From Candidatus Latescibacterota bacterium (GTDB lineage Bacteria; Latescibacterota; UBA2968; UBA8231), in assembly GCA_029941565.1 (NCBI GenBank), contig JAPYRN010000025.1:6030-70029 (forward strand): a stretch of DNA of 64,000 bases, in the 5' to 3' direction. The position numbers and the translations under genes were made by a program. This document shows, in pieces, positions 27,493 through 29,240 of this stretch (its first letter is position 1; each line of letters opens with the position of its first letter). The notes under the pieces were generated by a model that searched no databases, was not told the origin of the DNA, and saw only the letters and a list, made by a program, of their open reading frames with translations.

Positions 27493-28653
27493 TCACGCGT
27501 GGGGTAGCCGCTTCTCCATGGTGTCGTAGGGAAGGGGGATGATGTGTGCTGCTACGAGTTCTCCATATTGACCCGCCGTGCTGCGAGCGACATCCAGGGC
27601 CATTTCCACGGCCCCCGTCTCACCACGCACGACGCAAGCGGTGAGAAAGTAGCCCACTTTGTAGCGGCCCTCATACGTCACGTCGGCGTTTTTTAACATT
27701 GCATCCAGGGCCATAACGAGACCGATGGTGGTACGGGTTTCAACGAGGCCCATCGCCGTATCTGCATGGGACCGCGGCGGCGTTGAAGCCACAGGATGTG
27801 CAAAGGCGGCCATCACCGCTTCGTCCGGACGGGGGATAACGATCTGGCCATTCAGTTCAGCCGCTTCTCCAGCCCGGGCAGAACCGCTGTCGACGGCTGC
27901 CGTCACGTCGTCGAGCCGGCCCTCTACGAGGGTGGCTACACGTCCACCGCTGCCGATCGTCAAACCAACCACTGCAACATCAGCATCTTTCACCATCACA
28001 TCGCTGGCCGCGACGGAGCCGACGTAGCCGGTGGTCTCGACAATTCCCAGTCCTCCCGTGGCTCGTCTTTCCCCTGCGGGGCGGGGAGGCAGCAACAGAT
28101 CGAGCTCCATTTCCGGTTGACTCAATACCAGGGCGGCATGAAACTCGCCTGCACGCTGAGCGGCCAACTCACCGGCGGCGATCGCTGCTTCGACGTCACC
28201 CACACTGCCGGTGACACAAGCGTGGACGAGGGCACCGCCAATAAAGGTCCAGCCCGCCAGATCGACGTCCCCCGCCTTCACCATGGCATCGGCGGCCGCC
28301 ACAAGCGGCACAACACCCTTTGTCTCGAGAATACCAAGAGCTTCGTACTCGCCGTTGGCGCCACCAGCCTGGAGACTGGCGCCATGAGGCATCGATCCAA
28401 GAGCATCAGCCTCTGGCCGCGGCACAACCGCAGCGGTAATCACATCTCCGCGGAGCGCTGCCTCCTGGCGGCCATTGTCGATGGCGACCTGCACATCCGC
28501 CGTCTGCCCTTCGATGACGACGGTGAGCCAACCCGAGCCGATCATGTGTCGCCCGACGAGTCGTACGGAGGTTGCCTTGAACATGACGTCCACGGCGGCG
28601 GCGAGGGCGACCATGCCGCGCACTTCGAGAATACCGAGAGCTGCCGTCGCCAT
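27493..28653 (-). CDS. BMC shell protein with four tandem BMC domains (386 aa)
   Basis: Four repeats: ALGILEVRG..DVMFK..PRP; ALGILETKG..DAMVK..SQP; GLGIVETTG..DVMVK..PRP; AMGLVETRT..DAMLK..PLP. Confidence 0.92.
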   Translation of the reverse strand: MATAALGILEVRGMVALAAAVDVMFKATSVRLVGRHMIGSGWLTVVIEGQTADVQVAIDNGRQEAALRGDVITAAVVPRPEADALGSMPHGASLQAGGANGEYEALGILETKGVVPLVAAADAMVKAGDVDLAGWTFIGGALVHACVTGSVGDVEAAIAAGELAAQRAGEFHAALVLSQPEMELDLLLPPRPAGERRATGGLGIVETTGYVGSVAASDVMVKDADVAVVGLTIGSGGRVATLVEGRLDDVTAAVDSGSARAGEAAELNGQIVIPRPDEAVMAAFAHPVASTPPRSHADTAMGLVETRTTIGLVMALDAMLKNADVTYEGRYKVGYFLTACVVRGETGAVEMALDVARSTAGQYGELVAAHIIPLPYDTMEKRLPHA

Positions 28654-29240
28654 CAGCTGGCCCCAGCGCCTGCCGACGTCTGCACGAAAGCACGCATCAC
28701 ATCCGCCACGGGATGGCTGATCACCGCTGCCCCAAGAAACCACTCGCTGCCAGCCAGACTTTCGCGCGCCGCCGCGACGGCCTGTTCAACGTCGTCGATG
28801 GATCCCGTCACCAAGGTGCAGACGACACGATTGTGTACGGTCAGAACGTTGGCGATAGAGACCTCAGCGGCCTTCACCATCGAGTCATTGGTGACCACGT
28901 GCGTGCCGTAACCGCGAGTTTCAACCATACCCAACGCCAGATCTTGAGCGGTTGCATCGCCACCCGCCAGCAGTGGAAAACCGATGAATCCTGCCGTCTC
29001 CGGTTGCGGCTGATGCATTGCAGCGCTGACGACGTGGTCAACAATCTCTTTTGCCGCAGCGGCACCGCTGCGCAAAGCGCTATCGACCTCCCCCGCGCCA
29101 CCACGAAAAAACAGGGTCGTAAAGCCACCGATCGACTCCCAACCCATCAGCTCCACGTCGGCCGCCTTCGCCGCAGCGTCGGCGCCGACGATGATCCCGG
29201 CGACTCCCTCCACTTCTATCATGCCGATCGCATCCGCCAC
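28653..29240 (-). CDS. Two-domain BMC shell protein (BMC-T-like, divergent)
   Basis: AIGMIEVEG..DAAAK and ALGMVETRG..DSMVK domains; stop overlaps the next start (TGATG). Confidence 0.92.
   Translation of the reverse strand: MADAIGMIEVEGVAGIIVGADAAAKAADVELMGWESIGGFTTLFFRGGAGEVDSALRSGAAAAKEIVDHVVSAAMHQPQPETAGFIGFPLLAGGDATAQDLALGMVETRGYGTHVVTNDSMVKAAEVSIANVLTVHNRVVCTLVTGSIDDVEQAVAAARESLAGSEWFLGAAVISHPVADVMRAFVQTSAGAGAS

Follow-up and report, generated by a model that had tools for sequence, protein, structure and literature searches.

A four-domain BMC shell protein and its two-domain partner: a probable 4+2 tile in a Latescibacterota metabolosome

Introduction

How can a protein that carries four BMC domains in one chain find its place in the shell of a bacterial microcompartment (BMC), where a tile has six domains? 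According to the available parts of PMC8217296 and PMC9052549, the pentamers, the hexamers (one domain per chain) and the trimers (two domains per chain) that make up such shells are all rotationally symmetric, and their pores are formed by identical or alternating loops. A protein that raises this question is encoded in a 64,000-nt stretch of DNA from Candidatus Latescibacterota bacterium (assembly GCA_029941565.1, contig JAPYRN010000025.1, positions 6,030-70,029 of the forward strand). This whole stretch is called the window here, and all feature coordinates are positions within it. The four-domain protein, designated F (27493-28653, minus strand), is encoded next to a two-domain BMC protein, designated P (28653-29240, minus strand), and both genes lie inside a long microcompartment operon on the minus strand (24148-35232). 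An original prediction, made from the sequence alone, proposed that the 2 + 4 = 6 distinct domains would build one asymmetric tile. The analysis presented here supports this proposal through the domain counts, the obligate pairing of the two genes and a predicted ring, and the outcome of each computational check suggested with it favours the proposal: P and F probably join 1:1 into a "4+2" pseudohexamer, a shell tile that lacks internal symmetry, a reading to which a probability of about 0.65 is given. The argument draws on how the genes are built, on the domain counts, on the fact that the pair is always inherited together and adjacent, on conservation specific to each position and on the closed ring that is predicted; from these we infer actual binding, stoichiometry, placement in the shell and a role of the pore.

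Domain content of F and P

F, whose gene starts with ATG, has 386 aa and a mass of 39.3 kDa (P0001), and it contains four stretches that match PF00936 (E 1.4e-69, 230.4 bits). P, whose gene starts with GTG, has 195 aa and a mass of 19.7 kDa (P0002), and it contains two such stretches (E 1.3e-31, 108.8 bits); the Pfam cut-off is 24.5 bits. The limits of the single domains were set with a local BMC profile built from the window's own BMC domains. On the minus strand, F1 comprises residues 3-84 (28647-28402), F2 residues 103-184 (28347-28102), F3 residues 199-280 (28059-27814) and F4 residues 298-379 (27762-27517), while P1 comprises residues 2-82 (29237-28995) and P2, the most divergent domain, residues 100-181 (28943-28698). 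All six match the local profile end to end, with positions 2-81/82 in order, and are thus unpermuted; in the AlphaFold2 model of F, the order strand-helix-strand-strand-helix-strand is seen four times.

The lysine of the edge motif D-x-x-x-K is a contact between neighbouring tiles. This motif is present as DVMFK, DAMVK, DVMVK and DAMLK in F and as DAAAK and DSMVK in P. Among homologues (68-73 distinct homologous domains for each position), its D and K are invariant at all six positions, the sole exception being one D-to-N change in F3. Pfam, the local profile, the AlphaFold2 model and the alignments therefore agree with the earlier description of 27493-28653 as four consecutive unpermuted BMC domains, each with D-x-x-x-K, and the hidden Markov model (HMM) count that had been proposed as a check gave four PF00936 domains in F and two in P. 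The presence of four full Pfam domains and their conservation throughout the family are far beyond chance.

Family-wide pairing of P and F

A word-indexed search of 5.8 billion proteins, covering lengths of 212-676 aa, found 102 relatives of F. Their record names point to Latescibacterota and Gemmatimonadota; 91 of the 102 have 366-402 aa, and the longest has 402 aa. When cluster representatives were searched exhaustively with a profile, one full-length F cluster at 50% identity, plus fragments, was among the best 150 of 4507 hits. A scan at one genome per species gave 78 related loci, many of them in single-contig chromosome assemblies, and local HMM counts gave four domains in 73/73 full-length F homologues and two in 73/73 P homologues. 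F is present as a single gene per genome; in its own genome, 12 of the 14 BMC-domain matches lie in the operon, and the other two are single-domain satellites.

In one close relative (79% identity; L009:3225-4431), the four-domain gene is split by a frameshift into two overlapping frames, which is a sequencing error or a pseudogene. This case, together with several short database entries that have garbled tails, might suggest that F itself arose from an assembly or frameshift error that fused two BMC-T genes. However, such an artefact is refuted by the lengths of the relatives, by the four domains found in every full-length homologue and by the single-contig chromosome assemblies (some of which are titled 'genome assembly, chromosome: 1'), and hardly any weight is left to it. 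The assembly error that the original prediction had named as a danger is excluded in the same way, since the same architecture recurs in many independent assemblies. Candidates for natural split forms (2+2+2; P0105-P0112) were also considered; by eye, they have garbled tails from outside the family or start inside a domain, and they were treated as fragments or frameshifts.

The original prediction also raised the doubt that four-domain homologues might commonly lack the two-domain neighbour. They do not: wherever a locus includes the 5' end of F (74 of 74), the gene immediately upstream on the same strand encodes a P homologue of 184-198 aa with 47-72% identity, and five more complete P-F pairs were chance finds in metagenome contigs. 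The proposed check of co-occurrence came out the same way in a profile search of 168 genomes in the phylum, where P is found in 84 and F in 83, both in 83 and neither in 84. The only mismatch (G096, an assembly of 980 contigs), in which P is present in a 163-aa frame and F has no match, is read as the effect of a contig end; in G044, G095, G124 and G160, F is truncated where contigs end. Wherever coordinates were compared, the P and F matches abut, for example in G161, G047, G121, G122, G114 and G163. (It should be noted that the set of 168 genomes overlaps the set of 78 loci, so that the two counts are not independent, and that relatives share history.) P and F are an obligate pair, always co-inherited and adjacent.

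The junction between the two genes in the window reads ...GCC AGC TGA TGG..., in which the stop codon of P (28655-28653) and the ATG of F (28653-28651) share 1 nt; the TGATG overlap at 28651-28655 (minus strand) is thus as it was first described. Using the start codon closest to the aligned N-terminus, 49 of the 74 P/F junctions are overlaps (of 8 nt in 35, of 4 nt in 3 and of 1 nt in 11), 24 have a spacer of 1-14 nt and one has a spacer of 175 nt. The original prediction also called for a search for fused six-domain homologues, and none was found in length-bounded searches to 2000 aa. In particular, none of the 74 loci contains a P-F fusion (about 580 aa), and a fused six-domain form was absent above 402 aa in the search at 212-676 aa, at 677-2000 aa (weak evidence) and among the best 150 of the 4507 profile hits.

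Linkers, predicted structures and domain lineages

The spacing of the domains suggests how the two proteins might fit together. Within F, the linkers between domains have median lengths of 16, 14 and 15 aa; the one linker within P has a median of 15 aa, and that of the window's BMC-T has 14 aa. The C-terminal tail of P and the N-terminal head of F add up to a median of 15 aa (range 9-18), which is the length of one linker, whereas the tail of F and the head of P add up to only 8 aa. Consequently, the pair looks like a six-domain chain, P1-P2-F1-F2-F3-F4, that has been cut once, between P2 and F1.

The AlphaFold2 monomer model of F is confident, with a predicted local distance difference test (pLDDT) score of 90.6 and a predicted template modelling score (pTM) of 0.89. 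Neighbouring domains of F superpose on both halves of the synthetic BMC-H tandem fusion in 6NER, with target-normalised template modelling (TM) scores of 0.88-0.91 over about 183-191 columns. The complex modelling of F with P that had been called for was done with ESMFold2, using alignments A1 and A2, and it predicts a closed ring. The F-P scores were 0.72, 0.74 and 0.65, and the best of three controls, which were unrelated proteins rather than BMC paralogues, scored 0.00; the mark used for this score is reached by 58 of 80 solved complexes and by 2 of 110 mismatched pairs. Between runs, at least 93% of the contacts agree, and the pLDDT of the partner is at least 86. In these models, residues 6-90 of F1 contact residues 109-140 and 167 of P2, and residues 307-364 of F4 contact residues 7-85 of P1; among the contacts are the linker between P1 and P2 and the invariant M-P-H in that between F1 and F2, and F2 and F3 are free of contact with P. 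Contacts of F1 with P2 and of F4 with P1, with none at F2 or F3, are the pattern of a closed six-domain ring, D1-D2-D3-D4-d1-d2.

These results bear on an alternative in which F reaches beyond one ring: three F chains (12 domains) would build two stacked or adjacent pseudohexamers, or F would tie neighbouring tiles together, with P as a separate or capping tile. That four does not divide six speaks for this idea; the edge lysine is kept in all four domains of F, and stacked double trimers do exist in the form of BMC-T-dp (Sutter 2021, in the part of PMC8217296 seen). However, BMC-T-dp is defined there as permuted, which the domains of F are not; the three linkers of F are each as long as those within a BMC-T ring (medians of 14-16 aa, compared with 14 aa); the monomer model gives a single arrangement with confidence; and the predicted ring is closed by P, an obligate partner that the alternative would leave without a role. 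Arrangements of this kind seem unlikely.

An arrangement that deserves about the same low weight is one in which F fills four positions of a tile and BMC-H monomers or ordinary BMC-T fill the other two, P forming its own homotrimer; the two genes would then be adjacent as specialised tiles of the same shell. The components for this are at hand, with two BMC-H and two ordinary BMC-T genes in the same operon. P resembles BMC-T in domain order by profile comparison, BMC-T proteins are normally trimers (Sutter 2021, as far as the seen part of PMC8217296 goes), and the controls of the F-P prediction were unrelated proteins rather than BMC paralogues. Such independence of P and F is nevertheless at odds with their co-inheritance (83 genomes with both, 84 with neither and the one contig-end case), with their adjacency in every locus, with the single linker length made by the tail of P and the head of F, and with predicted F-P interfaces that are confident on both sides of the ring.

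If P and F share one ring, each of the six domains occupies its own position, and the phylogeny of the domains is consistent with this. A quick-search tree built on 171 single domains, which were taken from 20 loci and cover F1-F4, P1, P2, both domains of ordinary BMC-T and BMC-H, places the six P/F positions in six separate clades, with Shimodaira-Hasegawa-like approximate likelihood ratio test (SH-aLRT) values of 93, 98, 90, 99, 100 and 99; P2 has the longest stem. Each of the six domain positions is a conserved lineage of its own. In profile-profile comparisons with the two domains of ordinary BMC-T (T1 and T2), P1 scores 168 against T1 and 92 against T2, and P2 scores 175 against T2 and 102 against T1. 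P1-P2 and F3-F4 thus resemble T1-T2 in order, and F1 and F2 are ambiguous. The idea that F consists of two fused BMC-T genes is therefore half supported, as F3-F4 match T1-T2 in order but F1 and F2 do not; an origin of the system from three BMC-T-like genes, two of them fused, is possible but not established.

Several observations weigh against placing P and F in one 4+2 ring. Translational coupling is weak evidence for 1:1 synthesis, because overlapping genes are common in such operons; tight spacing is seen elsewhere in this one (the gap between P and the preceding gene, X, is 1 nt), so that coupling says little about stoichiometry. In 7 of the 74 loci (L012, L032, L035, L037, L040, L053 and L058), P and F are in the same frame with one stop codon and 1-4 codons between them, and the lack of any fusion among the 74 is unexplained if both chains always share one ring. 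BMC hexamers and trimers are abundant among solved structures, so the high F-P score may reflect likeness rather than specific binding, and with unrelated proteins as its controls the score does not address specificity for P over an ordinary BMC-T or BMC-H. Finally, for F1-F3 the tree does not agree with the profile comparisons, and F3 lies near T2 in the quick tree.

The centre of the proposed tile

In the proposed mechanism, P and F, made from overlapping genes, would join 1:1 in a flat ring, P1-P2-F1-F2-F3-F4, of about 59 kDa, and this ring would take one hexagonal position in a facet of the metabolosome shell. The six edges of the tile would keep the canonical lysine for contacts to neighbouring tiles. 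Because its six domains are different and separately conserved, the tile would have no rotational symmetry.

The absence of symmetry would be most evident at the pore. The loops predicted to line it in this locus are IGSG(W), IGGA, (I)GSGG(R) and VGYF in F and IGGF and VHNR in P; these six differ from one another and from the VGAG of the BMC-H, exactly as had been listed from the sequence. Among homologues, each loop is near-invariant in its own form: G-I/V-G-S-G-W in F1, I-G-G-A-L-x-H in F2, I-G/A-S-G-G-R in F3, K-V-G-Y-F/Y-L-T in F4, S-I-G-G-F/Y-T-T in P1 and T-V-H-N/D-R-V-V-C in P2 (T-V-H-N-R-V-V-C in the window). When the loops are arranged in ring order, the bulky or charged residues of F4, P1, P2 and F1 are contiguous, and the glycine-rich loops of F2 and F3 lie opposite. 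The centre of the ring might therefore have one bulky, charged side (Y/F of F4, F/Y of P1, H-N/D-R of P2 and W of F1) and one glycine-rich side (G-G-A of F2 and S-G-G-R of F3). From this arrangement, we infer that a single off-centre, basic and partly plugged opening or ligand site could replace the symmetric pore of BMC-H and BMC-T. As to its role, one can guess that an anionic metabolite or cofactor, for the pathway of aldehyde dehydrogenase, PduL, DHDPS-like protein and FAD oxidase encoded in the same operon, is let through selectively or bound there, or else that the co-encoded protein X docks there.

The metabolosome locus and protein X

Read along the minus strand, the operon begins with three tandem BMC-P genes (34825-35232, 34538-34828 and 34260-34541), followed by an ordinary two-domain BMC-T of 185 aa (33665-34222), a BMC-H of 88 aa (33378-33644), an acylating aldehyde dehydrogenase (31933-33363; PF00171, and 642 bits against a cut-off of 403 for NCBIfam PRK15398), a BMC-P pentamer protein (31599-31916; PF03319), a PduL-type phosphotransacylase (30687-31361; PF06130), another ordinary BMC-T, of 189 aa (30066-30635), and another BMC-H of 88 aa (29746-30012), whose pore loop is the VGAG mentioned above. 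Next come gene X (29242-29742; 166 aa, no known family), which ends 1 nt upstream of P, then P and F. Beginning 20 nt past F is a DHDPS-family enzyme (26252-27472), which is like class I aldolases or lyases and has an N-terminal extension of about 85 aa; it is followed by a flavin adenine dinucleotide (FAD)-dependent oxidoreductase of the DAO family (25177-26259), which is glycine-oxidase-like but below the NCBIfam cut-offs, and by a second, divergent DHDPS-like protein (24148-25089) at the operon end. (Just upstream of the BMC-P genes, at 35138-36889 on the minus strand, lies an open reading frame of 583 aa in which a LytB/IspH domain, PF02401, is restricted to residues 207-556; its long N-terminal extension may reflect a start codon mis-set by the mechanical call of the frame.)

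With four PF03319 genes, a PF00171 aldehyde dehydrogenase and a PF06130 PduL on the same strand as F and P, this is a BMC locus; its four BMC-P genes, three of them in tandem, are accompanied by a duplicated BMC-T/BMC-H pair. Gene content identifies it as a metabolosome with an acylating aldehyde dehydrogenase, PduL, two DHDPS-like proteins and a glycine-oxidase-like FAD enzyme; an alcohol dehydrogenase was not seen among the scanned genes. The context of F is conserved elsewhere. A DHDPS-family enzyme directly follows F in 68 of the 71 loci that hold at least 1.5 kb of downstream sequence, and on the same strand in those 71 loci there is an FAD oxidase in 55, PduL in 53 and an aldehyde dehydrogenase in 51. 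The P-F pair is a feature of a single locus type.

In 55 of the 74 loci, X is the gene directly upstream of P. Neither Pfam, searched at E up to 10, nor NCBIfam gave a family for it, and Foldseek gave 0 matches at E up to 0.001. Its AlphaFold2 model is only partly confident (mean pLDDT of 69): an N-terminal alpha/beta module at residues 11-50 has a pLDDT of about 96-98, and a Cys-rich middle stretch, with invariant C103, C118, C121, C136 and C139 and the motif EEFGSG, is modelled without confidence. The C-terminus of X is an amphipathic helix that, by eye, is encapsulation-peptide-like. The N-terminus of X (29600-29742, minus strand) and the N-terminal extension of the DHDPS-family enzyme (27200-27472, minus strand) have in common a module of about 36-50 aa with the pattern ...VVT...TPSA-W/H-D-Y/F-LR; the pairwise match is weak (E 0.002), and in seven other loci the N-terminus of X weakly matches the enzyme encoded just after F. 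This shared module may serve in targeting or in binding to the shell, and that X or its module docks on the P-F tile is speculation.

X also lends some colour to a view in which P and F bind each other and their complex is not a facet tile at all, being instead a nucleator of assembly, a scaffold that organises cargo or a regulator. X, with its encapsulation-peptide-like helix, is coupled to P in most loci, its N-terminal module recurs on the enzyme encoded directly after F, and the residues on the pore side are unusually bulky. Against this stand the invariant D-x-x-x-K on all six edges and a fold and domain spacing that are those of shell tiles, and a role of this kind is judged improbable, somewhat more so than the other arrangements of F considered above.

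The 4+2 tile itself can be elaborated further. In its boldest form, it would be a fully asymmetric natural tile whose six loops build the single off-centre pore or site and which also serves as a dedicated docking or transfer site for X and for the enzyme that shares its N-terminal module; it would then be a specific gate, or a cofactor or electron port, of a DHDPS-like/FAD-oxidase metabolosome and, alongside three-domain proteins, one of several partitions of six (6x1, 3x2, 2x3 and 4+2). This whole package is doubtful, far more so than the tile on which it builds.

Comparison with known shell proteins

The shell classes recognised in the parts of PMC8217296 and PMC9052549 that were available are BMC-P, BMC-H, BMC-H-p, BMC-T-s, BMC-T-sp and BMC-T-dp, none of which has more than two domains per chain; a 4+2 building plan is absent from these classifications as far as those parts go. 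Full-text literature searches, which included portions of PMC8217296, PMC4207490, PMC9052549 and PMC4454575, did not turn up any account of a BMC shell protein with three or four domains, although Supplementary Data 2 of PMC8217296 may list the locus type. The same paper, in the part seen, states that sequences thought to be sequencing or gene-model errors were pruned by hand, which could have removed such proteins. In the Protein Data Bank, no chain matches more than two F domains, either by sequence (the longest pure BMC chain has 213 aa) or by fold (up to 195 aligned columns). For F there is no NCBIfam model. It scores above the cut-offs of two 'equivalog' models, EutM (201 bits against 133) and CsoS1 (167 against 166), but only because the scores of its four domains add up. 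Relatives of F are named CcmO, EutM or CcmL/EutN in public sources, and JGI calls several of them CcmO; these automatic names are misleading and hide the family.

The match to CcmO (NCBIfam NF053792) is the best NCBIfam match of both F (232 bits) and P (75 bits), and both match it in an unpermuted, two-domain-like manner. However, both scores are below the cut-off of 270 bits, and the F/P locus is a metabolosome with an aldehyde dehydrogenase and PduL, among whose scanned genes no carboxysome genes were found.

The closest known architecture is that of BMC-T-s (PduT, 3PAC/3N79; Haliangium BMC-T, 5DIH), in which unpermuted PF00936 domains within a chain, joined by linkers of about 14-16 aa, form a six-domain pseudohexagon. 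The architecture of P alone is exactly the same, with the two unpermuted domains per chain that define BMC-T-s; F has four unpermuted domains instead. A BMC-T tile is 3 x 2 with threefold symmetry, whereas the proposed tile would be 4 + 2, with two chains and six non-equivalent positions. BMC-T-sp and BMC-T-dp are further removed, since the circular permutation that defines them is absent from the domains of F and P. As for the hexamers, the available text of Sutter 2021 (PMC8217296) characterises 'basal' facet BMC-H by KAAN and (P/A)RPH as interface motifs. In F and P the K is kept, but its context is KATS, KAGD, KDAD, KNAD, KAAD or KAAE, and PRP is found only in F1 (PRPE) and F3 (PRPD). By these motifs, F and P appear to be specialised rather than bulk tiles.

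The best match to F in both sequence and fold is 6NER (E 4.9e-31), the synthetic tandem fusion of BMC-H from the Haliangium shell, in which linked unpermuted domains lie side by side within a tile. That protein was engineered and assembles as a trimer of chains with two identical domains, whereas F is a natural protein whose four domains all differ and which would need a partner. Tiles made from more than one gene product are known from the CcmK3-CcmK4 heterohexamers of beta-carboxysomes (PMC6788708, seen in part). These consist of single-domain paralogues, whereas F and P would fix the composition and order of the tile covalently and by their unique pairing.

If the 4+2 tile is real, it would represent a new shell class whose six positions, at the pore and at the edges, can all evolve independently, and it would illustrate a way for a shell to have a single asymmetric pore or docking site of high specificity. 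Engineers would gain from it a natural scaffold whose six positions can each be altered separately; synthetic tandem fusions, 6NER among them, are only a first step towards this. The pair is also the mark of a metabolosome that is widespread and uncharacterised: about half of the phylum's sampled genomes have it, and the DHDPS-family lyase and the FAD oxidase are its signature enzymes.

The next-best relatives of F are three-domain BMC proteins (P0113, P0115, P0118, P0119, P0120, P0126, P0146 and P0150; 283-330 aa, with three PF00936 stretches each), which are likewise a natural departure from one or two domains per chain. A metagenome locus (L079:3956-4882) holds a three-domain open reading frame with no other BMC-domain frame within 4 kb, and a context search with P0118 returned mostly neighbourhoods of BMC-T and BMC-H, with a true three-domain frame in 1 of 80 loci. 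In contrast to F, such chains could make a six-domain tile as homodimers, without a partner. In the boldest reading given above, the 4+2 tile and these proteins together would mean that nature uses several partitions of six: six chains of one domain, three of two, two of three, and the unequal pair of four and two.

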